Origin: a virus
Taxonomy: Duplodnaviria; Caudoviricetes
Length of the DNA stretch: 52,337 nt
Strand: one strand, 5' to 3'
Virus record (IMG/VR): IMGVR_UViG_3300036770_004836
Location: 1 to 52,337 of that record
The position numbers and the translations under genes were made by a program. This document shows positions 4,680 to 30,499 of the stretch, in pieces (position 1 is the first letter of the stretch; each line of letters opens with the position of its first letter). Under the pieces are notes generated by a model. The model was not told the DNA's origin, searched no databases, and saw only the letters and a list, made by a program, of their open reading frames with translations.

Positions 4680-5489
4680 TTAGATTAAACTATTTGGTAG
4701 GTACCCCTTAAAATTAGAGTAAATATGATTCAATAATACCTTAGCATAAGTTTTATTATGGATAGGCCCTGCGTGAATATCATCCACAGCACCATCCACA
4801 AAATTACCATAAGCACCATCAAATCTATTGAATTCACTATACGCAGTCGGAATACCCATCCATCCATTCCATAACCAGTTGCATTTCTTTGATTCCAAAA
4901 AATACTTTATCAGAAGATGATTTTTATACCAATTCATAAAATCTTCATAATCGTTTTGAATCGCGACTAAACTATTTTGTAATTCCCTACCATCTTCAGT
5001 TTCTTTAGTATACCCCCATTGTGATGTAATCATAAAAGGTTCTAACCCCCCATCTTTGGTGTACAACTCCCTTCTTTGCGGCGACGTATACATAATCAAA
5101 ACCAAATCAGGTTTGATTAAATCATAATAAGTAATTAGGCATCTGGCAATAAAATCATTACTTCTCCCTCCCATCCCAAAATTATGATTTACTCCGTTGT
5201 TAACTAACTTAGAGAACTGAGCGGGCCATGTTTCATCATCATTTACCCCAACTCCTTCAGTATTGGAATCTCCAATCGACATTATCTTAAATCCTTCTTT
5301 GTCTATAGAGTCACCCCTAAAACCTAATTCGTTGTAAGTATATAAACACAAACGAGTTTCATCAGACCCCGAGGTATAGTATGATTGATTTTTCTTTTCT
5401 GACAAACTCCATTTATAACTGGAAATTTCGAACCCCTCAGGAGTCCAATACTTGAGATTATGTAAGGATTTGAAAAATCTTGGATCCAT
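4680..5489 (-). CDS. SGNH/GDSL hydrolase-like protein (putative O-acyl esterase/transferase)
   Basis: YNELGFRG..IGDSNTEG, GMGGRSN, DDIHAGP motifs. Confidence 0.75.
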   Translation of the reverse strand: MDPRFFKSLHNLKYWTPEGFEISSYKWSLSEKKNQSYYTSGSDETRLCLYTYNELGFRGDSIDKEGFKIMSIGDSNTEGVGVNDDETWPAQFSKLVNNGVNHNFGMGGRSNDFIARCLITYYDLIKPDLVLIMYTSPQRRELYTKDGGLEPFMITSQWGYTKETEDGRELQNSLVAIQNDYEDFMNWYKNHLLIKYFLESKKCNWLWNGWMGIPTAYSEFNRFDGAYGNFVDGAVDDIHAGPIHNKTYAKVLLNHIYSNFKGYLPNSLI

Positions 5490-6562
5490 TATATAAGATT
5501 TTGTTTTTGAAGAATAAATTCTTGTAGATTATGCCAACATTGTTGAGCGGGTATAAATGAATTAACTTCTCGAACGAAGTCATGATAATCAGGATGTGAC
5601 ACATCCCAAACTTTTTCCATTTCATATTCTTCTTCAGTAAAGGTCCCCCAATTGTTAATTTTACCATAAAAAACATTAACTTTTTTCCCAAAAATTGACA
5701 ACATCAAATCATAAAACGTTTTCATTTCTTTATAATTTTTCTGTTGTACAACAAATGAAGTTTTAATATTTTTCAAACCCCTTATAGTATTAATAAACTT
5801 AAGGTTTTCAATTAACTCATCCCAATTTCCACCAACTCTTACTTTATTTTCATACGTATCTTTAGTCGCAGCATCAATACTAATTTCACACGTTTTAATA
5901 TATTTGTGTACATTACTCATCGATTCCCACATTTTCTTATCCCATCTGGTAGCGTTGGTATGAAGATGTATATGAGACAAACTTGGCCATTTATTCGAGT
6001 CAAAGTTTCTGAGAAAATCCCTAAATCCAACAGAAACGAAAGGGTCACCTGATCCAGTTATATATAATCTTTTTGTGGTTTCACCATATTGAGTTTCTAT
6101 CTCGTCGATAGTTTTTTTTACTCTTTCAATCCCCTTAGAATTTTCTACTATCAAGTTTATCCGACAAGACGGACATTTGAGATTACAAGTCCTATCGAAG
6201 GAAAATTGTATTGTGGTTGGGGGTGATAAAATACCTTTTTTGAACGATTCAATCTTTGAGTTCAATTCCTTTGGTAGTTTATTTTTGTGATATAATGTAC
6301 TTGTATTACCCACTTCCCCAAAATTTTCAAGTTGATGTAAGTATGGACATTGGGTCTTATCACAGTATTTGAAAGACCCATCTATTACGGATTCTCGTAT
6401 TTGTTGTGCTTCAGTTGACTCCCAAGCATCTTTTGGTGAAGAATGTTGTGGTAAATATTTTTTTAACCATGACGCACAACACAGAAACCTATCCTTTTCA
6501 TGAATTTCTAAAGCAGCAAAAGGAACCGCACAAACATAGTCATTCAAATCTATCTTCTTCAT
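5489..6562 (-). CDS. Radical SAM protein with N-terminal Cys-rich (SPASM/twitch-like) region
   Basis: CNLKCPSC motif, ITGSGDPF, HTNA, SIDAA; N-terminal C..PF...LCC...C...CP. Confidence 0.85.
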   Translation of the reverse strand: MKKIDLNDYVCAVPFAALEIHEKDRFLCCASWLKKYLPQHSSPKDAWESTEAQQIRESVIDGSFKYCDKTQCPYLHQLENFGEVGNTSTLYHKNKLPKELNSKIESFKKGILSPPTTIQFSFDRTCNLKCPSCRINLIVENSKGIERVKKTIDEIETQYGETTKRLYITGSGDPFVSVGFRDFLRNFDSNKWPSLSHIHLHTNATRWDKKMWESMSNVHKYIKTCEISIDAATKDTYENKVRVGGNWDELIENLKFINTIRGLKNIKTSFVVQQKNYKEMKTFYDLMLSIFGKKVNVFYGKINNWGTFTEEEYEMEKVWDVSHPDYHDFVREVNSFIPAQQCWHNLQEFILQKQNLI

Positions 6563-7008
6563 ATTAAATCTTTTTGGATTTGAAGTTCGAAAGGATTATT
6601 TAACATAAAACCAATTAAAGTATATCTATCCCCCACACAATCATTAACCCTATGATATTCTTCTCCCGAAAAATAAATCATGTCACCCTTTTTAGGGGTA
6701 TATACTTCCTCACCGAAAAAAATTTCACCACCTTCAAAGTCATCATTCAGAAAAACAATAAAAGACCAAGAGTTCAAGTGCGTATGTGGTTCTTCAATTT
6801 GTTGGATTGTTTCATTAACCATTTGCACTCTGAATTTTTTGAAAACAAACCTATCCAATTTTCTAACTTCAATTTCGGTATCCATTAAATCAACGAAGTA
6901 AAACTTGTAATATTGGTCTCCGAAGTATTGTTTGACACCATTTTTGAAAATATTAATGAAGTATTCGGTTTCTTCATTCGTAAGAAATGATGGGACGTAT
7001 TTAATCAT
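6559..7008 (-). CDS. 2OG-Fe(II) oxygenase (prolyl-hydroxylase-like)
   Basis: PHTH...FLNDDFEGGE...YHRV...RYTL. Confidence 0.8.
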   Translation of the reverse strand: MIKYVPSFLTNEETEYFINIFKNGVKQYFGDQYYKFYFVDLMDTEIEVRKLDRFVFKKFRVQMVNETIQQIEEPHTHLNSWSFIVFLNDDFEGGEIFFGEEVYTPKKGDMIYFSGEEYHRVNDCVGDRYTLIGFMLNNPFELQIQKDLI

Positions 7009-7010
7009 AA

Positions 7011-7532
7011 TTAAAATAAACTCATTTCAACACCCAACTCTTTATGTGATATAAAATAAACAAATGAATATCTTGTACCCTTTGTGATTTCAGTCACCTC
7101 GTGTAAGACATCCGAGTTCATTTTATACAACACTCCTAATTCAGTTGCCAATTCACCATCAGGATTATAGGTTATTAATCTACCACCCTCAAAATCGTCA
7201 TTAAGTTTTGCACCAACGATAACGGCCCAATCATTCTGTCTTTCTTTATCCACATGTTTGGCAAATTTACCCCCCGTGAAAAATTCATGGGCATAAAAAA
7301 ATCTTCCTTCTTTTATTTTATTGTTCGGAAATTCATCTTTCAGAAATTCAGAAATCAAATCGAAAAACCATTGTGTTGATTGTTCCCGTTTGACTTCACA
7401 AATATTATAATCCAACCTTGACTTGTGTAATCCTGCAGGAGAACAAACATCAGGACAATATCTTACATTAGATTTACCAAAATAAGACATCCATGATATA
7501 ATTTCTTCACATTGTTTTTCTGTTAATTTCAT
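7011..7532 (-). CDS. 2OG-Fe(II) oxygenase
   Basis: KHVD...LNDDFEGG...LHEV...GTRYS. Confidence 0.85.
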   Translation of the reverse strand: MKLTEKQCEEIISWMSYFGKSNVRYCPDVCSPAGLHKSRLDYNICEVKREQSTQWFFDLISEFLKDEFPNNKIKEGRFFYAHEFFTGGKFAKHVDKERQNDWAVIVGAKLNDDFEGGRLITYNPDGELATELGVLYKMNSDVLHEVTEITKGTRYSFVYFISHKELGVEMSLF

Positions 7533-7536
7533 ATTG

Positions 7537-8079
7537 TTATATAATTTCTTGTGGAATCATTAAATCACTTTTTCTAGCCCAAAAAACCATAGAATATCTT
7601 ACACCTTGCATAACCTCAGTAACCCAATGGGGTAATTTAGCATCAAAATTTATACAATTACCACGATTTGGATTTGCAGTAAAATTTTCGAACATTAAAT
7701 CCCCCCCTATATAAGATCCAGGTTCAGATAATTGGAAAATATACGAACGATATCTCTCCCCCCTCTCTTTATCACCAGAATCATAATTCAAAATATTATT
7801 ATCCCTATGAACAGGAAATGAATCCCCAACAACATATTTCCTAACCAATAGATTATGTACCTGTTCATCATTAGAAAACGTGAAACGGTTGAGGTTTAGT
7901 TCAGGAAATATCGAAAAAAACTCCTCAGGAATATCCTCATGAGAAACTAATCCTTCTTGTCCGCATTTACCATATCTTTTTCCTCTATTCATAATGTCTA
8001 GAGGGCCATTTTCGAAATAGTTAATGAAATATTCACATAAACCTTCACTAAGTAATAATTTTTCTTCGATTGGTTTCAT
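7537..8079 (-). CDS. 2OG-Fe(II) oxygenase (PKHD-type)
   Basis: VHRD...QLSEPGSYIGGDL...PHWV...GVRYSMVFW. Confidence 0.85.
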   Translation of the reverse strand: MKPIEEKLLLSEGLCEYFINYFENGPLDIMNRGKRYGKCGQEGLVSHEDIPEEFFSIFPELNLNRFTFSNDEQVHNLLVRKYVVGDSFPVHRDNNILNYDSGDKERGERYRSYIFQLSEPGSYIGGDLMFENFTANPNRGNCINFDAKLPHWVTEVMQGVRYSMVFWARKSDLMIPQEII

Positions 8080-8657
8080 ATCACAGTTTTATTTATTTTT
8101 TTTTGATTCGATACGTCAATACACAAACTACCAGCATAAACAATTCGTTTTTTTTCAGAATTGGGGGTTGGAATTGCGGTATGCCTTATATCACCAGGAA
8201 ATATAAATATATCTCCAACATTCGGCATGAATTTATGTCTTTTTTTATCCTCATCTTCAAAAACAATACACCCTTCATCACCACTTACTTCATCCGTTGT
8301 TTGTAAATAAAACGTGAAAGTAAAATCAGACAAAATATTGGATCTACCAGAAGGATGAACCAAGATATGTTGATGCATCCATTCTAAATTAAATCCTTTT
8401 TTTTGTGTATAAATCCAGTAATGTTGGGCGTAATTAACAAGTTTCCTGTCGGTTATATTTTCTATTTGAGTTTTAATATAAGAATTTATGGAATTAAAAC
8501 ATTCCGTTTCAATTTCTACCCAAACAGAATTATCATTAGTGTGTATTGCGAGTTTGTCGTTAATTTCAACGTACTTCAAAAATTCACTAATAGGAAATTC
8601 ATTATTATATTTCCCTTTGTATATTGTGAATTTTTCCGATAACTTTATTGGACTCAT
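8076..8657 (-). CDS. Putative 2OG-Fe(II) oxygenase (HxH type)
   Basis: WMHQH...FTFYL...GDIFIFPGDIRH...KRIVYAG. Confidence 0.7.
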   Translation of the reverse strand: MSPIKLSEKFTIYKGKYNNEFPISEFLKYVEINDKLAIHTNDNSVWVEIETECFNSINSYIKTQIENITDRKLVNYAQHYWIYTQKKGFNLEWMHQHILVHPSGRSNILSDFTFTFYLQTTDEVSGDEGCIVFEDEDKKRHKFMPNVGDIFIFPGDIRHTAIPTPNSEKKRIVYAGSLCIDVSNQKKINKTVI

Positions 8658-9256
8658 ATAATATATCTTGGTTCCTTGAACTTTATAATATTTTCCCCTT
8701 TTTCAAAATTCCCATTTTTGAAATAAGTCCAATTTATTATATGAATAGGGCTAACCACTTTAGTAAACTTATTAGGTTCGAGTTTATATTCGTAACGATT
8801 AAGTTCTTCTTGTTTTCTAAATGAAAAATAATTGAAAACTGACAAAATACAATTGTCGTTTGCAATAGATTTACAATACTCTTCAAATTTATGGTAATTC
8901 ATATCATCATGTGTATCCATGAATATCCCATCGAATTTCTTTTTTAACTTTGGAATAATATCTACCCAATCACCAAATATAATATTTACATTTGGTCTAC
9001 TTTTAGCCCAATCTTTCGCTCTTTCGTAAATTTGTGGATTGATTTCTATACAAGTATATTCCTCCGCTAAATTACTCATTTCGTTTGCGGAAAATCCCAT
9101 ACCAAAACCTATGTCCAAAACACTACCTCCATTTTGGCAAACTAAATATGAATACATTTGCATCAATGATTTTGATGCTGCATCCATTACAATAGATCTT
9201 GGGTTATTTTTGAAATGGATGTTCCGTTCCGTGAAAACCACTTCTTCATTTTTCAT
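8654..9256 (-). CDS. Class I SAM methyltransferase, guanidinoacetate N-methyltransferase/Rmt2-like
   Basis: VLDIGFGMGFSA, CIEINP, GDWVD, FDGIFMDT. Confidence 0.75.
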   Translation of the reverse strand: MKNEEVVFTERNIHFKNNPRSIVMDAASKSLMQMYSYLVCQNGGSVLDIGFGMGFSANEMSNLAEEYTCIEINPQIYERAKDWAKSRPNVNIIFGDWVDIIPKLKKKFDGIFMDTHDDMNYHKFEEYCKSIANDNCILSVFNYFSFRKQEELNRYEYKLEPNKFTKVVSPIHIINWTYFKNGNFEKGENIIKFKEPRYII

Positions 9257-9270
9257 ATTGCTATATTAAA

Positions 9271-9702
9271 TTATAAAAATTCTTTTTTGTTGAATCGTTC
9301 ATATCTTCCATAGTTACTTAGAAGTTCTTCTCCTTTGTAAATAATTCGGTTGGTAAGGAGAGTATCTTTATCAATGTTTGATTTATCGAACCCACTATTA
9401 ACAAAATAATAAGGTGTCGTATAAATCCAATGACACCCATTAATTAATTTCACATATGTTTGTGTATCGGTCGGAAAATCTGGCCCATACAAAAAAATGT
9501 CTTTTATGTGATTATATAATTCCTCAGGAAGAGAACGTAATTCGGATTCAGATATTGAATATATACCCGTGTCTCCACTCCATACTTCAAATGGATTCGT
9601 ATCCTTAGGAATATCTTTTACGGCGAATACACCAACACCTTGGATTCTACTCGGTTTTAGTTTGACAAAAACTTTTGTAGAAATATATTCGAAAGCATTC
9701 AT
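9271..9702 (-). CDS. SET-domain protein (putative lysine methyltransferase)
   Basis: SRIQGVGVFAVKDIPK...YFVNS...IYKGEELLSNY. Confidence 0.8.
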   Translation of the reverse strand: MNAFEYISTKVFVKLKPSRIQGVGVFAVKDIPKDTNPFEVWSGDTGIYSISESELRSLPEELYNHIKDIFLYGPDFPTDTQTYVKLINGCHWIYTTPYYFVNSGFDKSNIDKDTLLTNRIIYKGEELLSNYGRYERFNKKEFL

Positions 9703-9845
9703 TAAGTGTGTTTTTGAATGAACAATTCAAAAAATTTGGCAACCGCCTGATTCACTTGATTTTTTTCAGTACTGTTCAAAGGACTTGTAGTCCTTGTCTC
9801 AACCGATGAAGTTGATATTTTTTTATAAAGATTTGGATTTGTCAT
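9702..9845 (-). CDS. Small 47-aa Ser/Thr-rich protein (not in ORF track): MTNPNLYKKISTSSVETRTTSPLNSTEKNQVNQAVAKFFELFIQKHT
   Basis: ATG at 9845 lies 6 nt after the TAA at 9852-9854; its own TAA overlaps the SET gene ATG (TAATG); it fills the gap exactly. Confidence 0.7.
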   Translation of the reverse strand: MTNPNLYKKISTSSVETRTTSPLNSTEKNQVNQAVAKFFELFIQKHT

Positions 9846-9851
9846 AGTTTG

Positions 9852-12107
9852 TTATTTGTTATGAACTAAAATTTTATTAGCATAGAAGTTATGGTTTTCC
9901 GAAACACTCAGTAAATTGTAAACTACACTTTCACTTTCATAAACTCATATATTCATAAGAATAATATTTTTTCCGTTATCATCCAAACAAACATCACCTT
10001 CAACCATTTCTTCAGCATTAACCCAATTTTTACCCTGCACGTAGAATGGATGTTCAGGTGTTGTTGTAATCAATCCACCATCATTGAAAGTTAAATCAAC
10101 CAAACGACCAACAGTATGAGATTTCAAGTCCCCAACAATACCAGGTTCATTTATTTTTAATTTTTGATTATAGGTCAATACTTCTTCACCAATAACAATA
10201 TCTTCTATGTTTTTATAATCTCCGTTTGATAACGTTATTTCAGTACCAGCAACAAAACAACGATTGTGCACTAACACACTATTTGCAAAAAAGTTATGAT
10301 TATTTTCAACAACTTTAACATTATAAACAATTGTCGGTTCTGAAATAATTTCTAAAGAAATAATACCGACTTCAATCCCATCCTCTCTAAGGACTTTAAC
10401 CCCGACTTCCGCTTGTCTACTATTTAACCCATATACGTTGAAGGTATATAATGGGTCCATAGAAATCCACCCAATTTGTTTTGAATATAGTGGGTGATCC
10501 AATGTTGATTCGAGAATTCCACCATTTTCAAAGGTATATTTTACAGTTTTATCTACTTTTCTTGAACCAACTCCTCTAACTTTTTGTTTTTCAACACTAC
10601 CGTTCTTGAAATTATATGATAAAACCATATCACCAATTTCAACATTTTCCACATTTTTGAATGTATTGTCTGATAAGGTTATTTGAGTGCCAGCAACAAA
10701 ACAAGGTGCGTTATGGGATATTACTCCATTAAAAGGAGTCGATCCACTTATAATGTATGTATCAGTATCTTCAGCATCAAGTTCAACTAATGTCAAGGTT
10801 GTGTCTGTAGTAACATAAAAGTTTACCTCATCAATCGCAATCAAATCACCATCAATGTCATACAAAAAGTCAACACCTGGTTTAAGGTATACCGATAATT
10901 TATATTTTGATATGTTGGTTGAGGAATCATAAATTAAGAAATGTTTGTTTGCCCCTATAAATTTAGATTCTGAGTCAACAACAATTTCAACCAATCCACC
11001 ATACTTTAGTTGTTTTTCGTCTTTGAATACTACTTCGGAAGTGGTCATATATGACCCTTCAGGAAAATATTGCCCTTCGAATGACCAATTCATTATTTCC
11101 GAGTTTATTTCAACCTGAGGTGATCCTGAAATGAAAAAAGATTTGATAAACTCACCTACACCAACATCGGAAATAGGTTTATACTCCTCATCTTCCATCA
11201 AAATTTGGTGTGTAGATAATAATCCACCACAATCTAACTTAATAAAATTTGTAGTATATTCATAATAGTGATGGTCAGCAATTTTATTAGCATATTGAGT
11301 TGTGTTCACCTCACCTGAAAGTGTACTTGGTAGTTCAAAAATAGAACTTATTTTATAATTGTGTAAAGTAAGAATATCTAAACTCGGACCATAAACAATA
11401 TGAAAACTTCTGACAGAAACTATATGTCCATCACCATCAGTGCTCGATGTACCATAATGATATTGTTGAATAATTTTATTCTCAGTTTGAATAGTCCCCA
11501 AAAATCCATCCCATCTGTCTTGATTGGATTCTCCTTCAACTTCTGACCCAATTTTATAAAAATCGATAGGATTAAAGTTTTCAATCATATCTTTTACCGC
11601 CACGTCGGGTAAATTATCAGGATTGATTGTTGATTCTAATGTATTATACGATTCTGTAGATGATGAATAGTAATAAGAAACCACATGAGATTCTTCGTTG
11701 TTAGATGCAAACAAATTTAGAAGCTCAACAGTACCTTTACAGTAAGTACTATCAAACAAAGCCGACTCATCATACGCTAACCTAAGAATAAATTTATCAC
11801 TTGAATCGGGAATTGTTACTGGATATATAGTGTTGATGTCCTCATCATGTAAATTGATAGTTGTTACAGATTCTGTGTTCGCAGAAACGGTTTCTGAAAT
11901 ATGTTTAACTATCTTATCATGAATAAATGGCTTATAAATTATATCTAACTGAGTAATATTGTTGGAATCCATTACATTAATGAATTCAGACAAGTCAAAA
12001 TTATAAAGTTCATTACCAATTATACTTGTATCGGTATTGAATTCCAGTAATCTCAAATTATCATTTGAATCTTTAACAAAGTCAGCGGAGAATAACGTCC
12101 CTTTCAT
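9852..12107 (-). CDS. Circularly permuted ATP-grasp-like protein fused to three tandem Hint (intein-like) domains; in-frame TGA at 9945-9947 interrupts Hint 3 (ORF track gives 9945..12107)
   Basis: N-terminal FSADFVKDSNDNLRLLEFNTD; Hint1 ends ISHN; Hint2 CFVAGT..TLDHP..YNVKVVENNHNFFANSVLVHN; Hint3 CFVAGT..TPEHPF..NI*VYESESVVYNLLSVSENHNFYANKILVHNK*. Confidence 0.8.
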
Positions 12108-12183
12108 ATTTTTCTTTGGTTATACATTAAATATCTTGCGAAGATTTAATCTGTTTATAATTTTAATCTCAAATCATCACATG

Positions 12184-12726
12184 TCAAATGAGAATTTTAT
12201 CTTTTAATACGGTTGTTCTCGAAATAGAAATGTGAGTCATTTCCAAACTCTGTGGTAAACTAAGCTGAAACTCAATAACATTATAAATTTCTGAGAATTC
12301 TACTTTATTAAACCCTACCCTTTTATTATGTTCCAACGTGTTCGGATATAAATTAACAATTCTAACTTTTTTATCTAAATTCGAATTAATCAAACTTAAT
12401 GAAGATTTTTGTAATTTTAATTTGTTTTCTCGATAATCATCAAAACTACCATTATTGAAAATAGCCGAGGTCAAAACGTTAAAAATTGTTTTATCCTGGT
12501 ACTTCCACAAATCGAAAAGTTCTTCAAAGATTATTTGTTGGTAAGTTGGATGATATGTATTATTTATAAAAATGTCCATATCTATAACCTCGGACAAAAT
12601 ATTTTTATAGTTTTTCAAATCATATCCATTACTTCTAGAAAAACCTAAAACATCATGATTTTTTTTCAGAAGGTCGAATAGCCCCTTTCCTAAAAATTCA
12701 CTATGTCCTGTTATTCCTATTTTCAT
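12184..12726 (-). CDS. Short-chain dehydrogenase/reductase-like Rossmann protein
   Basis: KIGITGHSEFLGKG, GFSRSNGYDL, DIFINN, YRENK (YxxxK). Confidence 0.7.
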   Translation of the reverse strand: MKIGITGHSEFLGKGLFDLLKKNHDVLGFSRSNGYDLKNYKNILSEVIDMDIFINNTYHPTYQQIIFEELFDLWKYQDKTIFNVLTSAIFNNGSFDDYRENKLKLQKSSLSLINSNLDKKVRIVNLYPNTLEHNKRVGFNKVEFSEIYNVIEFQLSLPQSLEMTHISISRTTVLKDKILI

Positions 12727-13235
12727 ATTAGAGTTGTTTTATTTTTTATATTTTCTTTATATAAAAATAATATTAAAGAATAGCGAATACCACTTTCGAT
12801 TTTGGTTACTTCATGTTCTCTTGTATTTTTGAAAGAATATATAGTACCTCTTACTTTTGGAATAACTTTTTTTGGCCCATATAAAATAAAATCTCCCCCG
12901 ACATAATCATCATTCAAACAAACCCCAACATTTAATGTTTGATTCGGATAGTATATATCATTGTGTCTTTCAAATTCATTACCCGGTTCATACTTGTGTA
13001 AATGAATTATATCAAATGGTTTGACAATTTCTGTCTCACAATCAACCAATAAATAATCAGTAATTTTGTCAAAAATCCACTCTACATCATTATTTCTATA
13101 GATGTTATAGTAGGTATATGAAATTTTTTCTCTTGGTCTTTCGACATGTGTACTATGTACATCACGACGAACACCCTCTATTTGTGTTGTTAAATTTATT
13201 ATTTTATCACACTCTTCTTCTGTAAAAAAAACCAT
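12723..13235 (-). CDS. 2OG-Fe(II) oxygenase
   Basis: RHND...LNDDYVGGD...EHEV...GIRYSL. Confidence 0.85.
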   Translation of the reverse strand: MVFFTEEECDKIINLTTQIEGVRRDVHSTHVERPREKISYTYYNIYRNNDVEWIFDKITDYLLVDCETEIVKPFDIIHLHKYEPGNEFERHNDIYYPNQTLNVGVCLNDDYVGGDFILYGPKKVIPKVRGTIYSFKNTREHEVTKIESGIRYSLILFLYKENIKNKTTLI

Positions 13236-13242
13236 TATTAAA

Positions 13243-13270
13243 ATAATAAAACAATTTCACATAAAATCAA
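13243..13270 (-). promoter_or_regulatory. Possible sigma70-like promoter (TTGATT-N16-TATTAT) 7 nt upstream of the ATG at 13235
   Basis: Similar TAGATT-N16-TATATT at 64-91 (+) upstream of the first gene; AT-rich background makes this weak. Confidence 0.25.
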
Positions 13271-13272
13271 AT

Positions 13273-13389
13273 TTAATGGTTGTAAATGAAGGGGTCTCTT
13301 TTTTTCAACTCTTCAATTTTCTTTTTCAATTCTTTTTTTCTTTTGTGTTCTTTGATTTTTTTCAAGAACCAATTAATAATTTTCTTCAT
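13273..13389 (-). CDS. Small 38-aa basic protein, SxtK/DUF5989-like carbamoyltransferase partner (not in ORF track): MKKIINWFLKKIKEHKRKKELKKKIEELKKRDPFIYNH
   Basis: ATGA overlap with the carbamoyltransferase stop; C-terminal PFIY motif. Confidence 0.7.
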   Translation of the reverse strand: MKKIINWFLKKIKEHKRKKELKKKIEELKKRDPFIYNH

Positions 13390-15053
13390 AGTATTTTGTG
13401 TATTATATAATTATCTAAAACTAACAGATCTAAGTCAGTGTCCTTGAAGGTTTCTATCGCATCACACGGAGTCAACACCATTGTTTTATCTTTAACGTTG
13501 AAGGATGTATTCAATATAATTGGATATCCGCTTAGTTTTTCAAACTCAGTTAATAAGTCATGAATAACAGTATTTTCATATACAGTTTGAATTCTTGACG
13601 TTCCGTCCACGTGAACAACTGCAGATAATTTATCTGCATATTCTTCTCTAACTTTAACGATTTGATTCATGTATGGTACATCATCAATTGTGTGGAAAAA
13701 CTCATTTTGTTTCTCTTTAATAACCATAGGAGCAAAAGGACGAAACCCCTCTCTTTTCTTAATCAATCTATTAATTCTGGATTTCATATCGGGTACAGTA
13801 GGGTCGGCTAAAATAGACCTATGTCCTAATGCTCTTGCTCCGAATTCAATTCTATCTCTATACCACCCAACTACTTTACCCTCATGTATTTTTCCCGCAA
13901 CGTATTTTATTAATCTATTGTAATCGTGAATTTCAAAAAAGTTCAAATTTTTAATGTGACCCAAATAAAATTCAACATCGTACTTTGGCCCCAAAAAAGG
14001 ATTCTTAGTTACTCTTTTATTTAATTTTTTATTTTGTACAAGGTAATGGATACAAGCACCAACACAAGACCCTGCATCAGATGGTGCAACAGGTATCCAT
14101 ATTTTTTCAAAATTTGAATTGGAAACTATCTTCCCATTCGCAGTACCATTGTACGCCGAACCACCTCCTAAGCAAAGATTATGACTACCAAGATTTTTCA
14201 AACTTTTAATAATATCGAATAAAACTTCTTCGTATCTTAGTTGAACTGCCGCCGCTAAATTTTGATGAATTATAGTAATTTCTTCTTCAGTTAATCTTGG
14301 TGAAATACCTAAATGTTCTATCAATTTTTCGTTGAACATCAATTTTTCTGACTTATCCCAACAAAAAACATTCATATCACAGATTAATTCTCCATCTTTG
14401 AATTCTATTAAACTTCTAACTTTTTCAATATACTCTTGAGGGTCTCCGTATGATGCTAATCCCATTAATTTATATTCTCCTTCATTTGGTTTGAACCCCA
14501 AATACGAAGTCATTGTAGAATAATAAAGCCCCAATGAATGAGGATATTCCCCCAAATCATGATATTCAATTCCACCATCATCCGCCAAACCAAAAGATAA
14601 TGTGTCAATTTCACCCACACCATCAATAGACAAACAGATTGCCCTTTCAAAATCGGAAGTGAAAAAAGAATAATACTGATGAGCCAAATGGTGTTCGGAG
14701 TAAAATACTCTTCCCTTAAATGGCCTCAAATGTTTATTTACATCTGAGATATTTTTTAAGATTTTAACTAAAGATTTCAAAGAATATTTCGGTGATATAA
14801 AAAAGTTTTTCTTGATGTTACTCAGTACTCTTTTTAGTTTTAGATTGAGGTCTTCATAATAACAAACCATTTCAATATCATCATAAGTTATACTATAATG
14901 ACTAAAGATGTATTCGATTGTATTAATTGGAAAAGAACTATCGTGTTTAATCCCCGTAAATTTTTCTTCTTCACAAGCAAACACCAACTCCCCGTCTTTG
15001 AATAGACAGGCGGATGAATCGTGATAAAAAGATGAAATGCCAAGTACGTACAT
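13386..15053 (-). CDS. O-carbamoyltransferase (NodU/CmcH/TobZ family)
   Basis: LGISSFYHDSSA, EHHLAH, DGVGE, EGEYKLMGLASYG, EFGARALGHRSILADP, KKREGFRPFAP, HVDGTSRIQTV, LNTSFN. Confidence 0.93.
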   Translation of the reverse strand: MYVLGISSFYHDSSACLFKDGELVFACEEEKFTGIKHDSSFPINTIEYIFSHYSITYDDIEMVCYYEDLNLKLKRVLSNIKKNFFISPKYSLKSLVKILKNISDVNKHLRPFKGRVFYSEHHLAHQYYSFFTSDFERAICLSIDGVGEIDTLSFGLADDGGIEYHDLGEYPHSLGLYYSTMTSYLGFKPNEGEYKLMGLASYGDPQEYIEKVRSLIEFKDGELICDMNVFCWDKSEKLMFNEKLIEHLGISPRLTEEEITIIHQNLAAAVQLRYEEVLFDIIKSLKNLGSHNLCLGGGSAYNGTANGKIVSNSNFEKIWIPVAPSDAGSCVGACIHYLVQNKKLNKRVTKNPFLGPKYDVEFYLGHIKNLNFFEIHDYNRLIKYVAGKIHEGKVVGWYRDRIEFGARALGHRSILADPTVPDMKSRINRLIKKREGFRPFAPMVIKEKQNEFFHTIDDVPYMNQIVKVREEYADKLSAVVHVDGTSRIQTVYENTVIHDLLTEFEKLSGYPIILNTSFNVKDKTMVLTPCDAIETFKDTDLDLLVLDNYIIHKIL

Positions 15054-15580
15054 TATGAATCGTATTTTTCGGGATATTCATTAATTAAGGTTATCCCCCC
15101 CTCATTTATCGCGTGGTCATAAGCGTTTTTAATATCATCCGCAGTCAAACAATCAAAGAATTTTATTGTTTGAGTTATTGACTGAAACTCTTTGAAATAA
15201 TTATTTCTGTGTTGAGGACCTGGATTCAAAGGTATTTCCGATCCCTTACCGACTCTAATAATCATATTTGGTTTCCACTGACCATTACTCATTAAATCCA
15301 TCTTGTCAACATGGTTTATTAATTGATTAGCAGCACAAATCAAAAAGTCCCATCTCGGATAAAATGTAATCACAAATTTCCCTGTCATTGCCATACCCAA
15401 AGACATTCCCATTTGAGAATCTTCCATCACCGGTAATTCAATCATTTTTTCTTTTGGAACATCAACCAAAGTTGAACTCATAGGGTTCCCAGGAAATAAT
15501 ATTTGTTGCCCAAGAAAAATAGTATTATCCATTTTCCCTAACTTTGTCATTGCGATTGTTAATGAGTTTTTGTATTCCAT
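15053..15580 (-). CDS. TPP-dependent dehydrogenase E1 beta / transketolase pyrimidine-binding subunit (lacks C-terminal domain)
   Basis: IELPVMEDSQMGMSLGMAMTG, DFLICAANQLINH, GPQH. Confidence 0.8.
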   Translation of the reverse strand: MEYKNSLTIAMTKLGKMDNTIFLGQQILFPGNPMSSTLVDVPKEKMIELPVMEDSQMGMSLGMAMTGKFVITFYPRWDFLICAANQLINHVDKMDLMSNGQWKPNMIIRVGKGSEIPLNPGPQHRNNYFKEFQSITQTIKFFDCLTADDIKNAYDHAINEGGITLINEYPEKYDS

Positions 15581-16776: not shown

Positions 16777-17406
16777 TTAAAATACAACCCACTTACCTGT
16801 TCCATAATGAGGCCATTGTTTTTCATATTCATAATAGACCACATCATTCGGGACCTCTAATTTTTTACCCCATGTTTCGATTGTTGGAGTATTTGTAGAA
16901 ACTCCATTATCTTCAACAACAAATCTAACAGGTAATTCAAAGTTTTTTATGTATTTGTAGTTTTCCATAAAAGTACCTGTCTCAAAAGTCATATCCCCAA
17001 TAAAACACCAAACAATTTCACTCTTATTATCCCGTTTATTGGACATTGCAACACCAGTTGCGATTGGAATTATTCCGCCAACAATCGCAGAACTATAGAA
17101 TTTTTTTTCTCTATTGATGATACTAATTGACCTTCCATCCAAAATTTCTAACTCTAACCAATTAGGTGATACTCCTTTAAGTAAAGCGTGATAATGAGAC
17201 CTCCATGTAGAAAATACCCAATCATTCTCTGAAATTCTTTTGAAGATTTCAATAAGATGTTTTTCATTTCCTCCACTCAAATGCACAGGACCTCGTATTT
17301 TACCAGTTTCCCAACTTCCAACTATTTTATTTTCAAAATGAATAAGTTCTTCTTCATTCCAGTTGTGTTCTCTAACTATTGGATACTGTTCTAAATTTTT
17401 TATCAT
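16777..17406 (-). CDS. TPP-dependent dehydrogenase E1 alpha-like subunit
   Basis: GPVHLSGGNE, STWRSHYHAL, SAIVGG, FIGDMTFETG...VVEDN (TPP-binding motif). Confidence 0.85.
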   Translation of the reverse strand: MIKNLEQYPIVREHNWNEEELIHFENKIVGSWETGKIRGPVHLSGGNEKHLIEIFKRISENDWVFSTWRSHYHALLKGVSPNWLELEILDGRSISIINREKKFYSSAIVGGIIPIATGVAMSNKRDNKSEIVWCFIGDMTFETGTFMENYKYIKNFELPVRFVVEDNGVSTNTPTIETWGKKLEVPNDVVYYEYEKQWPHYGTGKWVVF

Positions 17407-23711: not shown

Positions 23712-23728
23712 AATAATAAAAATAAATG

Positions 23729-24463
23729 TTATTCAATCGAAGTCAAAGAATTGTCCAATATTAATTTGAGAAGCGGTATGGGTATTTTCACAGGATTATG
23801 TAACCCAACAGGATAAGGGTAAAAAATATCTTCAACACTAAATTGCATCGCAGTCAATATGTCGGGCAATTCCTCATCATTCAAGTTTTTTATGAAAAAA
23901 ATATCTTCCCAAATGTCTTCTTCGTAATCATTGTTTTTCAAATATTCAATTGTTTTTGATTTTTTTCGGATGGACAATCCACCATTACCAACAAACTTTC
24001 CTTCTTTTGGAAACGTCCACGGAGCACCAATAAAGTCATATTCCAAAAAATCATCTATATTATCTCTCAATAACAAAGAATCTATTTGAAAATTAAGTAT
24101 AGTTTCCCCCTTAACCATTTCCCAGAATTCAATAGTTTTCAATAATTCCGTATGAGTTTTTTTGTCGAGGTCTTCGATGTCTAATTTCGTTAGGACAACA
24201 TTACTCCAATCTTTGACAATATTCTTTATATAGTTTTCATTACTCTCACTATGAAAAATTTGTAATCCCCATTTTACATTTCGATTTCCTTTATTCAAAA
24301 AATAAATGTGGTTTTTTAGTATTTGTTCGAAATTAATAACAGTCCTATTCTCAATAATAATTGAATTAAACTCCGAATTTTTTTTCAGTTTGGGGTGAAA
24401 ATTTTTAGTTTTTTCTGTGAATTTGACCAAATAATCATTTAATAAATCGTATTGTTCTGTCAT
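23729..24463 (-). CDS. DUF5672-like putative glycosyltransferase
   Basis: FQIDSLL...YDFIGAPW...VGNGGLSIR...EDIFF...A.QFSVE...GLH. Confidence 0.7.
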   Translation of the reverse strand: MTEQYDLLNDYLVKFTEKTKNFHPKLKKNSEFNSIIIENRTVINFEQILKNHIYFLNKGNRNVKWGLQIFHSESNENYIKNIVKDWSNVVLTKLDIEDLDKKTHTELLKTIEFWEMVKGETILNFQIDSLLLRDNIDDFLEYDFIGAPWTFPKEGKFVGNGGLSIRKKSKTIEYLKNNDYEEDIWEDIFFIKNLNDEELPDILTAMQFSVEDIFYPYPVGLHNPVKIPIPLLKLILDNSLTSIE

Positions 24464-25080
24464 AAAAATTCTTGGATTTTGTGATAAATGTAATCCCCAA
24501 TAATTCGGTACCCAAACTCATTAGGATGATAATCCCCTTTGAACATGTTTTCTTTATCGTCCCAAACTTTTCGGCTATTATACTCCCAAACAGAAATATC
24601 ATTCTGTCTCTCATAAAAATTGAGAAAATCTGAAAGACATTCTTCAGGATTAATAAAATACTTCGGTAGTTGCCCCACCTCAAAATCTTCATCCAGAAAT
24701 GTGGGATAAAAAGAATTAAAATAGAAGTGTATATGGTTTTGAAGTTTAGATTCTAATTTGTTATAAATCTCAATGACATTGTAAGTATCTGCAGTATATC
24801 TGTACGGGTAAGAAAACATTACAATAATAATATCATTTGGTTCAATGAATCCATAGTTAAATGACTCTTCAACTTCTTTTAAGATATACTCGTTTCCATA
24901 TCCACAAACACCACAATTTACATACAAACAATCTAATTTTTGAGCAACCCACCTTGGCCAAGAATTTTGATTTCGTAAATTTGTTATAAATTTTTCAGGA
25001 TGTGCGACTTCTTTATACTTAGAATCGGTTTCAATTCCATGACCTGCAGTCCAACTATCACCGAAACATATTAGTTTCAT
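24460..25080 (-). CDS. SGNH/GDSL hydrolase-like protein
   Basis: CFGDSWTAG, G..GYGN, DYHPNEFGY. Confidence 0.8.
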   Translation of the reverse strand: MKLICFGDSWTAGHGIETDSKYKEVAHPEKFITNLRNQNSWPRWVAQKLDCLYVNCGVCGYGNEYILKEVEESFNYGFIEPNDIIIVMFSYPYRYTADTYNVIEIYNKLESKLQNHIHFYFNSFYPTFLDEDFEVGQLPKYFINPEECLSDFLNFYERQNDISVWEYNSRKVWDDKENMFKGDYHPNEFGYRIIGDYIYHKIQEFL

Positions 25081-25814
25081 ATTAAATTTTCTCTTTTTTT
25101 GATAAACTCATAAAAGTATTTTGCATGTGATAGATGACCCAACTCTCCACTATGTAAGTCCTTTACTTCACCTGAAGTTTCATGCTCCATTGTATGTTTT
25201 CCATCGGAATATAATCTTCTTGCAAACTCAAAAACATCAAAGTTACCATCGGGAGTTGTTATGAAACTACCAACTTCATCTTTATTAATATAATCATCAT
25301 GAAAAAATGCACCATCAGAATTCCAATGTAAAATTTTAACATCACTTCGAATACAAAAGGTATTAATTAAAGATACCCAGTTCCAAAGTTCTGAATTCCA
25401 AGCAGGATGTGATCTATTATTAAAAACTTCTATCAAGGTATCATCAGAAAAAATATGAGTTCCATTAGTATTAATGAACGATGGCAATATGTTATTCATA
25501 TGTCCATCTCTTTCATTATATGCCACAAACCTTAAAAGAGATGTCCATCCAATAATTACTAAGTCTCCCTTTTGAAAATTTTTATGTTCGTCAATGAATT
25601 TCCAAAAAATGGTTTGGTTAGCAGCTCCTCCCTCCCCACAGTTTTTAACATCGTAATTCATCATTTCACCGAGTACTGTCGGCCAAACTTTTGGTAAATT
25701 CCCACCTCTCCAATCTTTGTAATCATCATAATTACTTCTGTGATTAACATCTCCTACTGGATGATATTCTGCAGTAAAACTACATCCAAATACCCATAAA
25801 GTTTTTTTACTCAT
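25077..25814 (-). CDS. SGNH hydrolase-like protein
   Basis: VFGCSFT, GEGGAAN, IIGWT...R, DLHSGELGH. Confidence 0.7.
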   Translation of the reverse strand: MSKKTLWVFGCSFTAEYHPVGDVNHRSNYDDYKDWRGGNLPKVWPTVLGEMMNYDVKNCGEGGAANQTIFWKFIDEHKNFQKGDLVIIGWTSLLRFVAYNERDGHMNNILPSFINTNGTHIFSDDTLIEVFNNRSHPAWNSELWNWVSLINTFCIRSDVKILHWNSDGAFFHDDYINKDEVGSFITTPDGNFDVFEFARRLYSDGKHTMEHETSGEVKDLHSGELGHLSHAKYFYEFIKKRENLI

Positions 25815-26599
25815 ATTAAGTTATTTTTTGTAATGTATTTATAAAACATTTCATATTGTATGACATGACCATTTTCACCTAAATGACCATCTCCAACAAC
25901 TCTATTTGTTTCATCAAAAATTGTGGTAGCACCATTATTAAAGAACACATCAAAAATTGTTCTTTTCATTCCCATACGCACAAAACTATGATTGTTTATT
26001 TCAGGTCTTATGTCCACTGGCAAACTTCCAATTTCTTCGTGAAGTAAGTATAAGTCATTATTTAATTTTTCTGGAGGTAAATTGTTAATTATATCAATAT
26101 CTGCAGACCAAAAGAACAATCTAAAACCTTTGGACTTAGAAAATTGAGTGATTAATTTCTCTTGTTCATAAACCTCATCAATGTATGGAGGTAAAGTTTT
26201 ATTCACCGCAATGTCTTGTCTAGTGGATTCTGAAATATAAGTACCATCTTCAGGATTAGCACTTAATCTTTTCCATTGATATAGATTTTGAGGTCCATAA
26301 TAATACGCCCACCTAAATCTTTGAGGATAGGTCCAATTAATAATTACCATATCTCCAATTTCAATCTCATCAGAATGACGACAGAAAGTTTGAAAAATTT
26401 CTGTGTTTGACATTCCTGCCACAGCATGATTCCTCATTTCCATGCCAAGTCGGTTCGACAACAAATCCCCCCAACAAAGAGGTAACTGACCACCCCTATA
26501 ATCTCTCCAGTCATGATAACGAGGAAAACTATCATCGAGTAAATGACCTTGAGTAAAGCTATCTCCAAATAAATGTAATTTTTTCATATCAAATTCCAA
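25811..26599 (-). CDS. SGNH hydrolase-like protein (likely start 26587)
   Basis: LFGDSFTQG, AVAGMSN, INWT...R, DGHLGENGH. Confidence 0.75.
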   Translation of the reverse strand: MEFDMKKLHLFGDSFTQGHLLDDSFPRYHDWRDYRGGQLPLCWGDLLSNRLGMEMRNHAVAGMSNTEIFQTFCRHSDEIEIGDMVIINWTYPQRFRWAYYYGPQNLYQWKRLSANPEDGTYISESTRQDIAVNKTLPPYIDEVYEQEKLITQFSKSKGFRLFFWSADIDIINNLPPEKLNNDLYLLHEEIGSLPVDIRPEINNHSFVRMGMKRTIFDVFFNNGATTIFDETNRVVGDGHLGENGHVIQYEMFYKYITKNNLI

Positions 26600-27879
26600 A
26601 ATAAATCAAAATCTTGTGTTTTATCCAAAGCAATATCAAGTAACTTTTTTCTGTTTAATTCGAACCTTTCTCGATTATTTCTGTAAAAAATTCGAATTTC
26701 TTCCTTTCGGTCATTTATTCTCTTAATTTCGTCAATGAACATTAAAAATCTTTTTTTATCATTTAATTCACTATCGTATGAATGGTCTATTATGTCTTCA
26801 AAAAAATCAAAGTCATATTTCTCTTTCAGTTTCTTTATGTGATTAGGCGTCGCTAAAATTAACGGAATTTGATAATAATAAAATGGTCTGAAAGATTTTT
26901 CGGTTGTGTGGACAACATTAGGGAAAAAAGTTTGAGATTCGAATGCGCTTTCCGAAATTATGTTAACGTAAGAATTCTCATAACTTTCACTAATTTCAGG
27001 GTAGTGAAGACATGAATTTTTGTTGTTGTGAAAACCAGTAAATCCGTAATTTTTATAATCATAATATTCTTTACCATTTTCATAATCATCCTCCTTGATA
27101 AGTCGGTTGAATGTCTTTATTAAATCAACATTACTCCATATATACTCTTCTTCAAAAGACAAATAATACGGCATAACATCATCCTCGGGGTAAGTGAATA
27201 ATTTAGAATAATTTACATCATCAAGAACATCATTAATCATCAAATGAAATAACAAATTTAACCTATGAGGTTTAGCCGTCTTATTTCTAGACATGAAAAA
27301 TTTACCTGTTTTATTTTCCACAAATCGTACGTCAGTGACTTCAGTCAGAGCATATGTTGATGAATAATCAATGAAATTTATTTTTTTGGCATTGACATCA
27401 TATTTTTGACTCAAATAGTCGCTCAAGGAATTGTTAGTAACATAATAGAATTTATCTGTAGAAATTCCATTTTCCCTGAGAAGTTCTTTAGTACATTTAA
27501 TTTCTACATCACATGCCGGTTCGTGTTCCATTGTTATAATCAAAAACAAATTATTACATTGCCGGATTGCTTCCAATGTCTCATCTAAAACAAAAAAATT
27601 CCAGTTGTTTTCTGAAATTATTTTTGAGGATAAAAAGGCACTTCCAATAACAAGAAAAAACTTTTCATTTGGATTCTTTCTAACATCATCAAGATTACAC
27701 ACTTTTAAGGATAACTTACGTTCAAGATGATCTTTACGACCAGTTGGTTCCATAATATGTGTTTCAAAAAAATTTCTTGCATCAAAAAAATAAAACTGAC
27801 TGAAACTACTCATTCCATTTGCAACAGGTTCATCCCCATTCCAAGATTCATATACCAAATTGATTGTCTTTTCTACCAT
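26584..27879 (-). CDS. Putative glycosyltransferase, GT10-like phage paralog family
   Basis: RNKTAKPHR...VNIISES...TTEKSFRPF...FDFFEDIIDHSYD. Confidence 0.55.
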   Translation of the reverse strand: MVEKTINLVYESWNGDEPVANGMSSFSQFYFFDARNFFETHIMEPTGRKDHLERKLSLKVCNLDDVRKNPNEKFFLVIGSAFLSSKIISENNWNFFVLDETLEAIRQCNNLFLIITMEHEPACDVEIKCTKELLRENGISTDKFYYVTNNSLSDYLSQKYDVNAKKINFIDYSSTYALTEVTDVRFVENKTGKFFMSRNKTAKPHRLNLLFHLMINDVLDDVNYSKLFTYPEDDVMPYYLSFEEEYIWSNVDLIKTFNRLIKEDDYENGKEYYDYKNYGFTGFHNNKNSCLHYPEISESYENSYVNIISESAFESQTFFPNVVHTTEKSFRPFYYYQIPLILATPNHIKKLKEKYDFDFFEDIIDHSYDSELNDKKRFLMFIDEIKRINDRKEEIRIFYRNNRERFELNRKKLLDIALDKTQDFDLFWNLI

Positions 27880-27881
27880 GA

Positions 27882-29057: not shown

Positions 29058-29170
29058 AAATAACTTTGTTCACGATTTGTACCAATATACTGTTGATACG
29101 TTAGTGGTAAATTTAGATAAAAATTGTTGACAAATCCACTAAAAAAACCATCAGATAATCAACTATAATA

Positions 29171-30499
29171 TTATATTAATTTTTTGTTTTGTCGTTCATA
29201 TTCATTAAGGTCTTTTCCAAATATTTGCTCTACAATATTAAAAGCGTATGGTGTTTTTTTCGAAGCATTATGTTCTAAAGTATTATAATTATGTTTCAAA
29301 ACATTTTCCATATCTTTGTATATGTTTAACTTATTTTTTTCTTTATCAAATTGTTTCAAACTTTCGATAATCGCATCCATTCTCTTATTGTCGGATAAAG
29401 AATCATAACTCTCATCAATCCATTTAGAAAAAGTTTCGTAACCAAGTTTCTTCATTTCGTGCAAACTATTTTTGTTACCCATCACAATAAATGGATGATA
29501 ACATGAAATAGGTTTGAACATTTTTTCACTAAGAAATACAGTACCCTGCGAATCCTCAAATTGCGCCTCACTAATAACAGATATCCAACTATCCAAATGA
29601 GGTTGTTCGTATATTCTTCTTATATAATATCCAGTGTCCAACAACTCATTTGATTTACCATACAAATCACAAGGTAAAATATTTTGTACTTCAGAGAAAA
29701 TATTTTGGTCAATTTCCATCCCACAATATTCTCTTTGGTGAGGTGCGAACTTATTCATACTTATCAGACCTTCTTCTAACAAATTATGTTGATATAGTTT
29801 TACAAAGAACCAAATTCGATGCTCTCTAGGTTTTTTGTTTAGATTGTTGAATAACTTGATGTTGTTGAAGTTACTTGTCTTATATTCCAAATGTTCTTCA
29901 TATGTTTTAAGTGGCGTATTTTCCCATCGAAGATGTCTGATTTCCCCAAACACATCACTTTCAAAATGAGAATAAGGAAGAACATGAATTTTGATATATT
30001 GCGGATTTTGTTCTAACCACATGTTATATCTGTCTTCAACAATTGAATTACCTGTCACAAAAAATATTTGATTAGGAGAGATATTATAATCCCTACATTC
30101 GTTATGAAAAAAATCGAAAATCCAATCACAATGGTAACCCTCAAAACTTGAATCAATCAGTAAATACGCATTCCCAATTTGTAAATCTCGAAGATATGTT
30201 TCACTCAAAAATTCAAAAAAACTTTGGACAGAGCTGTCAGGTGAATACTTTCCTCCTGCCCACATTTCAGGATCATTATTTACCCCGACAGGTATAATGT
30301 ATTTATCGGGTTTATTCTTCATTGAAAATTCTAAAAAGGTATCTTTATAATTTTCATTTAATCCCCGTAAGCAAACCATTCTATTGTATAATGGAGCTAC
30401 AGTAAATCTATCTGACCCAGCTTTATTTGTGACCCAGTTTTCAACAAAATTTCGACTTTGTTCTAAATCCTCGAATACAAAATTCATATACCTTTCCAA
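29171..30499 (-). CDS. Putative glycosyltransferase, GT10-like phage paralog family
   Basis: LNKKPREHR...SVISEA...LSEKMFKPI...PFIVMG...GYETFSKWIDESYD. Confidence 0.55.
   Translation of the reverse strand: MERYMNFVFEDLEQSRNFVENWVTNKAGSDRFTVAPLYNRMVCLRGLNENYKDTFLEFSMKNKPDKYIIPVGVNNDPEMWAGGKYSPDSSVQSFFEFLSETYLRDLQIGNAYLLIDSSFEGYHCDWIFDFFHNECRDYNISPNQIFFVTGNSIVEDRYNMWLEQNPQYIKIHVLPYSHFESDVFGEIRHLRWENTPLKTYEEHLEYKTSNFNNIKLFNNLNKKPREHRIWFFVKLYQHNLLEEGLISMNKFAPHQREYCGMEIDQNIFSEVQNILPCDLYGKSNELLDTGYYIRRIYEQPHLDSWISVISEAQFEDSQGTVFLSEKMFKPISCYHPFIVMGNKNSLHEMKKLGYETFSKWIDESYDSLSDNKRMDAIIESLKQFDKEKNKLNIYKDMENVLKHNYNTLEHNASKKTPYAFNIVEQIFGKDLNEYERQNKKLI

Follow-up and report, generated by a model that had tools for sequence, protein, structure and literature searches.

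Introduction

Very short terminal peptides can bring unrelated pathway enzymes to one receptor, as in encapsulin cargo loading, bacterial microcompartment encapsulation and the peroxisomal signal PTS1. Free C-termini are also read by PDZ domains, whose class I ligands have Ser or Thr third from the end and finish with an aliphatic residue, and short binding tails are recognised by sliding clamps of the T4 gp45 or bacterial beta-clamp type. Here we analysed a 52,337-nt stretch of viral DNA (Duplodnaviria; Caudoviricetes), positions 1 to 52,337 of the IMG/VR virus record IMGVR_UViG_3300036770_004836 and called the window hereafter, in which tailoring enzymes of several families end in a common C-terminal motif, most often Leu-Ile (-LI). 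A protein is called tagged when its last two residues are both aliphatic (L/I/F/M/V).

A comparable signal is found on MuA, the transposase of phage Mu, which carries a ClpX signal termed C-motif-2 with a tail printed as ...QNRRKKAI in an excerpt of PMC12723719. Going by that excerpt, both signals lie at the extreme C-terminus of a phage protein, are unstructured, and run from basic residues through a small or aliphatic residue to a terminal Ile. In contrast to C-motif-2, the tag described here is carried by at least 25 enzyme families in one array and ends in two aliphatics. It usually has one or two Lys instead of an Arg/Lys run (Lys at a frequency of 0.42 at position -4 and 0.38 at -7, with the aliphatics at -2 and -1), a pattern similar to the basic run of MuA but not the same. 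Moreover, the occurrence of phage ClpP does not follow that of the arrays.

As with cargo and targeting peptides, a short terminal peptide is shared by 25 families and is rare or absent in homologs elsewhere (0/23, 2/59 and 20/89 in the sets given below). Unlike in those systems, we recognised no shell, compartment or receptor gene, the peptides follow another sequence pattern, and they are carried by a T4-like phage of a bacterial host. The tails resemble PDZ ligands in their free C-terminus, their aliphatic last residue and, in some cases, a third-last Ser or Thr, but this last feature is not the rule, since Lys, Asn and Glu are equally frequent there. A search for PDZ_2 and PDZ_6 in a complete 326-kb relative (G001; 100% by CheckV) returned no match although the controls matched, and a phage-encoded PDZ reader was therefore rejected. 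A sliding-clamp tail was likewise set aside because the DNA polymerase of G001 ends in ...EKIKSI and not in an aliphatic pair; gp45-slide_C gave no match in G001, in a search whose control barely matched.

Gene clusters of similar content have been described in marine T4-like myophages, namely the HRC of pelagimyophages (PMC7029224) and the lipopolysaccharide (LPS) clusters of cyanophages with multiple 2-oxoglutarate (2OG) oxygenases (PMC3037559). To judge from excerpts of these two papers, such clusters share with the window a large and variable gene content adjoining tail-fibre genes and a repertoire of glycosyltransferases, sugar-nucleotide enzymes, radical SAM cassettes, carbamoyltransferase and 2OG oxygenases, whereas a shared C-terminal motif is not mentioned in the excerpts. 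The two cultured marine myophages HTVC008M and P-SSM2, which are of similar GC content, bear out this difference, with 3/51 tagged proteins in a glycan-containing 49 kb of the former and none of six 2OG oxygenases tagged in the latter. A literature search, confined to one library of papers, found no description of such an ending shared among clustered phage enzymes. By analogy, the tag would work like a docking or targeting peptide or like a C-terminal degron, without being a demonstrated member of any such family.

Results

Leu-Ile forms the last two residues of 10 of the 50 proteins encoded in the window, and Ile is the last residue of 19. The dipeptide accounts for 0.79% of the internal dipeptides of the same proteins and, when stop triplets are counted in every frame on both strands, precedes 25/2750 (0.9%) and 35/2850 (1.2%) of them; taking p=0.0123, the excess at protein ends has a binomial P=5e-10. 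All ten endings, together with the close variants and the three codon strings cited in a preliminary description of this DNA, were recovered. The ten proteins are less independent than their number implies, as they include two paralog sets (15580/26584/29171 and 25077/25811), yet after collapsing paralogs to BLAST families 7 of 33 still carry -LI (P=1.4e-7). When any two aliphatic residues were accepted, 18/50 proteins qualified against an expectation of 8-10%, and eight consecutive genes, from 4680 to 9702, had such an ending. Between 4680 and 13235 it is present on 10/10 enzyme genes and absent from a protein with Hint modules and from a 47-aa open reading frame (ORF), as had been reported. 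The accompanying claim that the tag spans unrelated folds held in that several enzyme families are represented, but five of the ten are 2OG-Fe(II) oxygenases.

ORF calling over all fetched loci yielded 2069 proteins in 589 BLAST families, 25 of which had two or more tagged members that made up half or more of the family. In the family-averaged motif the last position was I (0.54), L (0.24), F (0.11) or V (0.10), and the preceding one L (0.42), I (0.30) or F (0.14). Position -3 was polar (K 0.22, T 0.17, N 0.11, E 0.11, S 0.11), and Lys stood out at -4 (0.42) and at -7 (0.38). Tagged ends had Lys at -4 in 39% of cases and untagged ends in 13%, a comparison whose P value is inflated by the relatedness of the ends. 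Thus -LI is the commonest form of a wider and longer motif, approximately K-x-x-K-polar-[L/I/F]-[I/L/F/V]-COOH, in which Lys at -4 is combined with any aliphatic pair.

The ending was maintained in close homologs. For the radical SAM enzyme, 115 of 119 full-length homologs, at 58-90% identity, ended in an aliphatic pair (LI 63, II 28, LL 8, LF 5, VI 4, LV 2 and five singletons) and four were untagged; Lys occupied -4 in 82 of them, while -3 and -5 were free to vary. The 2OG oxygenase encoded at 12723-13235 was tagged in 42/42 full-length homologs, and the SDR-like protein (12184-12726) in 81 of 82 close homologs despite a 76-nt downstream spacer, its tails interchanging LL, II, IL, LI, LF, LM and FI. 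Tails are therefore kept in orthologs from relatives, a point that the preliminary description had made decisive. In G001, which carries the same cluster in the same gene order at ~80% protein identity, 10/10 tailoring enzymes of 4680-13235 retained an aliphatic pair even though residues, codons, stop codons and junction types all changed among the tagged ends. Conversely, families without the tag in the window (dehydratase, reductases, aminotransferase and GT7 proteins) had untagged orthologs too.

With increasing distance the ending disappeared. None of 23 distant SDR homologs (<=46% identity) was tagged, and among stand-alone radical SAM representatives of 33-50% identity 20/89 were, mostly the nearest ones; many distant radical SAM proteins end right after the last conserved block, without the extra 6-8 residues. 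Of 59 homologs from bacterial genomes, AT-rich ones included, which had been hand-picked from 80 loci, 2 were tagged, so that the expected lack of the tail in cellular homologs was largely observed. These comparisons show the tail to be an addition to the enzymes, without counterpart in distant and cellular homologs. AlphaFold2 (AF2) models agreed with such an appendix: the 2OG oxygenase at 12723-13235 had a pLDDT of 91.8 overall but 69 over the last ten residues and <50 at residues 168-170, and the radical SAM enzyme (5489..6562) had 87.8 overall and 60 over the last seven residues, which were modelled as coil. The tail is thus predicted to be a flexible extension of 5-10 residues, and a tail that is conserved yet unstructured bears the signature of a short linear motif.

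Within G001 the ending was concentrated in the syntenic cluster and not equally frequent genome-wide. Aliphatic pairs closed 19/47 cluster genes and 34/335 genes elsewhere (P=9e-7), the latter at the 8% expected from composition, and -LI closed 7/47 and 6/335, respectively. At ATGA overlaps the last residue was Ile in 8/11 cases inside the cluster, whereas the 35 such overlaps outside it closed with Lys in 11 cases and with Ile and Leu in 7 each, the outcome expected from the start context.

A more trivial origin, in stop-start junctions, had been raised as an objection together with the proposal of a tag. In the window, 23/50 gene ends overlap the next start: the 18 genes with ATGA overlaps include 5 with -LI and 9 with aliphatic pairs, and the 5 with TAATG overlaps include 2 of each. 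The 27 non-overlapping ends nevertheless carry 3 -LI endings (P=0.004) and 7 aliphatic pairs (P=0.015). The codon of the terminal Ile was ATA in 17/19 window genes, against 33% internally. At 229 intergenic starts of G001 no Shine-Dalgarno (SD) signal was found, G being at or below 17% everywhere from -20 to -1, which points to a host that initiates translation without SD pairing. A prevailed at -3 and at -2, with 49% at either position, T made up 54% at -1, AT occupied -2/-1 in 51/229 starts, and AAT-ATG was a favoured context also for starts with no coding sequence before them.

We then surveyed related AT-rich loci, in which 204 of 828 distinct gene ends were tagged, 63 of these without an ATG within 15 nt downstream. 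In these 63 the Ile codons were near background (ATA 14, ATT 7, ATC 6), Leu was drawn from five codons, and Ser before the pair from both AGY and TCN. At TAATG junctions ATA was over-used (18/23 Ile), in keeping with the A preferred at -3 of the next start. As in ATGA/TAATG translational coupling, overlap and A at -3 shape codon choice, with ATA for Ile. Overlaps elsewhere in G001, by contrast, close with Lys, Leu and Ile at much the same rates, and the tag also occurs where there is no overlap. The junction thus shapes the codon and not the residue. Taken together, the cluster specificity, the free ends, the varied codons and the untagged cultured phages show that junctions do not explain the endings and that the motif is selected at the protein level and specific to the cluster and lineage.

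Tagged genes were arranged in runs, of up to 11 in succession, not only in the window but also in five further lineages. The L084 group contained a run of 11 consecutive tagged genes and L090 runs of 7 and 7, with ends of the form K-[T/S/N/K]-[L/I]-[L/I], and the complete genomes G008 and G009 had runs of 6+4 and 9+5. In all of these and in the window, the runs were broken only by the same two untagged genes: one for a protein of ~490 aa homologous to the N-terminal part of the product of 9945-12107 (E about 1e-16), found at 12774-14267 of G008 and 179126-180604 of G009, and an adjacent ORF of 45-50 aa. The core protein of the window (9945..12107, minus strand) consists of an N-domain of ~465 aa followed by two bacterial-intein-like (Hint) modules. 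The N-domain, previously labelled ATP-grasp, had no match in Pfam, NCBIfam or PDB sequences. The C-terminal part matched bacterial-intein-like domains (PDB 2lwy at 5e-12; Pfam AXH, PT-HINT and Hint). Across the homologs (alignment A3) there were 0 to 3 such modules or, in their place, a Cys/Trp-rich tail of ~30 residues that follows an invariant His-Asn ... Cys junction, an architecture which suggests that the core protein would cleave itself and release a C-terminal peptide. In the window protein the last module is truncated relative to those of relatives. The 47-aa ORF (9702..9845, minus strand), which always adjoins the core gene, is Ser/Thr-rich, has a conserved C-terminal segment ...KFFELF.NKH. 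and ends in ...QKHT; its positional equivalents in G008 and G009 have 45 aa and end in ...KHLS. Its product could be a substrate, carrier or adaptor. The core pair and the tagged array look like one system. When residues 1-465 of the core protein (N-domain; alignment A3) were modelled together with the 2OG oxygenase (A1), the prediction, run without controls, gave no support for a complex (score 0.06) and weighs neither for nor against one.

The window itself has a GC content of 31-33% and 49 genes on the minus strand; its only plus-strand gene is large, convergent and codes for a glycosyltransferase. Pfam searches recognised enzymes of sugar-nucleotide synthesis (GDP-mannose dehydratase, epimerases/reductases, DegT-type aminotransferases and UDP-glucose dehydrogenase), glycosyltransferases (GT9, GT1, GT2, GT7 with LamG, Anp1 and DUF5672), a carbamoyltransferase, the halves of a thiamine pyrophosphate (TPP) enzyme, radical SAM enzymes, six 2OG-Fe(II) oxygenases, methyltransferases and SGNH-like proteins, with a collagen-repeat fibre carrying a Peptidase_S74 chaperone domain at the far end. 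G001 encodes a T4 Gp23-type capsid protein whose nearest relatives, at 42-45%, were those of an uncultured 484-kb phage, Microcystis phage Mel-JY01 and Flavobacterium phages. Given this capsid and the synteny with G001, the window is identified as the glycan/fibre-modification cluster of an uncultured AT-rich T4-like jumbo phage. Neither megablast of 4600-13300 nor tblastn of the radical SAM enzyme gave a match in the phage collection, where the 2OG oxygenase and the carbamoyltransferase had only distant matches of about 30%. A search for capsid proteins of nucleocytoplasmic large DNA viruses (NCLDV) found no match, and its control matched nowhere either.

The array genes, all on the minus strand, are as follows, in order of coordinate. 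The last of them, 4680..5489, encodes an SGNH/GDSL-like enzyme with the tail ...PNSLI (TTA ATC TAA) and no gene downstream. Its ortholog in G001 ends in SSLI (TTG ATT), a synonymous change at both LI codons, and 6 of 11 ortholog tails had aliphatic pairs. The radical SAM enzyme (5489..6562) ends in ...QKQNLI; a fold search with its model returned generic matches only, with TM about 0.45. It is followed by four genes of the oxygenase group: a 2OG-Fe(II) oxygenase at 6559..7008 (...QKDLI), whose G001 ortholog ends in RNFL at a different junction type; one at 7011..7532 (...EMSLF) with a Pfam match just under the cut-off, a paralog of 12723-13235; one at 7537..8079 (...PQEII); and an oxygenase-like protein with a weak Pfam match at 8076..8657 (...NKTVI). 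Then come a class I methyltransferase (8654..9256; ...PRYII) and a 143-aa protein with no family match (9271..9702; ...NKKEFL), whose family is tagged in 5/5 members; the label SET given to it previously found no support in Pfam or NCBIfam. Beyond the core pair lie the SDR-like Rossmann protein (12184..12726), which ends in ...KDKILI (CTC ATT TGA) before the 76-nt spacer and owes its family label to PF00106 in distant homologs, there being no other basis, and the P4H-like 2OG-Fe(II) oxygenase (12723..13235; ...NKTTLI), whose modelled fold is nearest to P4H/PHD enzymes, among them the collagen prolyl hydroxylase of a chlorovirus.

Further tagged genes, also on the minus strand, are scattered over the next 17 kb. 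These encode a carbamoyltransferase (13386..15053; ...IHKIL), a TPP-enzyme E1 alpha-like protein (16777..17406; ...KWVVF; 7/10 family members tagged), an SGNH/GDSL-like enzyme (24460..25080; ...IQEFL; 4/5 ortholog tails tagged), a DUF6071/GDSL-like protein (25077..25814; ...KRENLI) and its paralog at 25811..26599 (...TKNNLI). Three paralogs, termed family A, are found at 15580..16776 (...FFKSLI), 26584..27879 (...LFWNLI) and 29171..30499 (...QNKKLI, TTA ATA TAA, then a 113-nt spacer). NCBIfam had no match for family A or the 25077 protein. The ESM Atlas placed the latter with DUF6071/GDSL-like proteins (0.97) and family A among viral hypothetical clusters with a weak GT10 lead (0.79). Family A is otherwise free-standing and tagged, is also related to 19437-20630, and recurs as the C-terminal domain of a 707-aa fusion with an NAD-dependent epimerase/dehydratase (30484-32607, minus strand).

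Three other regions of the window merit mention. The plus-strand gene 100-4587, convergent on the array, encodes a 1495-aa multidomain protein (GT9, Methyltransf_24, GT1) that ends in ...VEKK, while its 1210-aa counterpart in G001 ends in ...HLLI. At the opposite end, the open-ended minus-strand gene 48888-52337 (>1149 aa) combines collagen triple-helix repeats with the Peptidase_S74 domain and has a GC content of 45%, against 31% elsewhere in the window. It shares the cluster with prolyl-hydroxylase-like oxygenases and GT7-type transferases, and hydroxylation and glycosylation of the fibre are therefore conceivable. Finally, families typical of eukaryotes or giant viruses occur here in a T4-like phage, at 41537-44403, 47191-47859 and 23729-24463 (all minus strand): two GT7 (beta-4-galactosyltransferase-like) proteins with LamG domains, an Anp1-like protein and DUF5672.

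Discussion

The preliminary description had proposed a C-terminal recognition tag that recruits enzymes to a scaffold, assembly site or virion, or acts as a degron. Our results support a tag of some kind, in that the ending is appended, conserved, predicted to be flexible and under selection at the protein level. They lend no support to targeting to the virion and revealed no receptor. We favour docking, to which we assign a probability of roughly 45%: one common partner would read the tails and gather the tagged enzymes at a hub or a common substrate. A free C-terminus with two aliphatics, an upstream Lys and a flexible linker is readable by a peptide-binding pocket. The shared partner would recognise the free carboxyl end, both aliphatic side chains and the Lys, thereby bringing all tagged enzymes to one place, hub or substrate, and a captured enzyme could enter the pathway by gaining a few residues. 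Recruitment is favoured because the tag marks the variable tailoring genes and not the adjoining sugar-nucleotide enzymes, because it has been added to enzymes captured from diverse families, because the content of the arrays turns over fast between relatives while the tag stays, and because a constant untagged pair sits in the middle of the array. From its position alone, this core pair would be the prime suspect as reader. A more specific version, which we consider tentative and on balance doubtful, is that the core pair forms or carries the substrate or hub and itself reads K-x-aliphatic-aliphatic-COOH, enzymes joining by means of a tail of 5-8 residues; plug-and-play recruitment into such a combinatorial modification line would explain both the fast turnover of the arrays and the strict conservation of the tag.

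Several observations weigh against docking or against the selection on which it builds. No reader protein was identified, so that docking is proposed on logical grounds. In the related loci the tag was commoner at ATGA (69/175) and TAATG-type (35/103) junctions than at free ends (63/398), and some nucleotide-level contribution to the pattern therefore has to be granted. The gene ends counted are related to one another and not phylogenetically independent, and those of the relatives come from our own ORF caller, which was validated on the window alone, where it reproduced the 49 complete genes. The ending of the carbamoyltransferase (13386..15053) is weakly kept, with only one of seven ortholog tails tagged. 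In family A, Ser-Leu-Ile may belong to the fold, because it is internal in some homologs and followed there by 2-4 residues.

If the ending is read by a machine and not by a scaffold, it could be a degron or unfoldase handle through which a Clp-type AAA+ machine of host or phage degrades or remodels the tailoring enzymes and so limits their time window. The tails do resemble the C-motif-2 ClpX degron of MuA as printed in the excerpt cited above (PMC12723719; compare ...ERQNKKLI in the window), they are predicted to be unstructured, and G001 encodes ClpP (173781-174479) and a ClpC-like double AAA+ ATPase (154213-156225; AAA, AAA_lid_9, UVR, AAA_2, ClpB_D2-small), while AAA_2-family ATPases are present in the complete array-bearing genomes G008 and G009. 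Phage ClpP, however, was found in only 2/19 related records and is absent from G008 and G009, and AAA_2 ATPases are also encoded by G007 and G010, in neither of which arrays were seen; as neither tracks the arrays, a phage-encoded Clp protein was rejected as dedicated reader. Nor is there an obvious reason why the array enzymes should be short-lived and the neighbouring nucleotide-sugar enzymes not, and we regard the degron, although it is the chief rival of docking, as unlikely. Still less probable is an intrinsic role without any reader, in which the tail packs on its own enzyme or a neighbouring subunit (autoinhibition, oligomerisation) or confers weak affinity for the inner membrane. A Lys with two aliphatics would make a minimal peripheral membrane patch, many array enzymes are of glycan-type families and lipid-linked glycans are built at the inner membrane, and in family A the motif is sometimes internal. 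But it would take the same solution in each of more than 25 unrelated families, the tail is not packed in the AF2 models, two aliphatics beside a charged carboxylate would anchor weakly, and the adjoining glycosyltransferases and sugar enzymes are untagged.

The remaining explanation, which dispenses with protein selection altogether, is a by-product of genome mechanics: AT-only codons before starts, ATGA/TAATG overlaps, paralogy or a recombination junction. It would account for the 7/10 -LI endings at ATGA/TAATG junctions, for the prevalence of ATA at terminal Ile next to a favoured AAT-ATG start context, and for the several tagged proteins that are paralogs. We nevertheless consider it very improbable and, on comparison of the loci, largely refuted, since the motif is cluster-specific within G001, persists at the 63 ends without a downstream start and in the spacer-followed SDR-like family, draws Ser from both codon boxes and Leu from five codons, and is lacking in HTVC008M and P-SSM2 at similar GC. 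Hydrophobicity also outlasts changes of residue and junction, with LI, II, LL, LF and VI interchanging.

Were the degron reading to prove correct, the phage would time a whole enzyme set by one protease signal. If instead recruitment is true, as we favour, a simple sequence rule (Lys at -4 and a terminal aliphatic pair) would pick out co-working genes in phage LPS and host-recognition clusters, and would offer a first way into the function of the many orphan 2OG oxygenases, radical SAM and SGNH enzymes that marine-type T4-like phages carry. The tag, being very short and portable, might then be reused to co-localise enzymes, and the cluster would represent a case of pathway assembly via a minimal linear motif in a bacterial virus.

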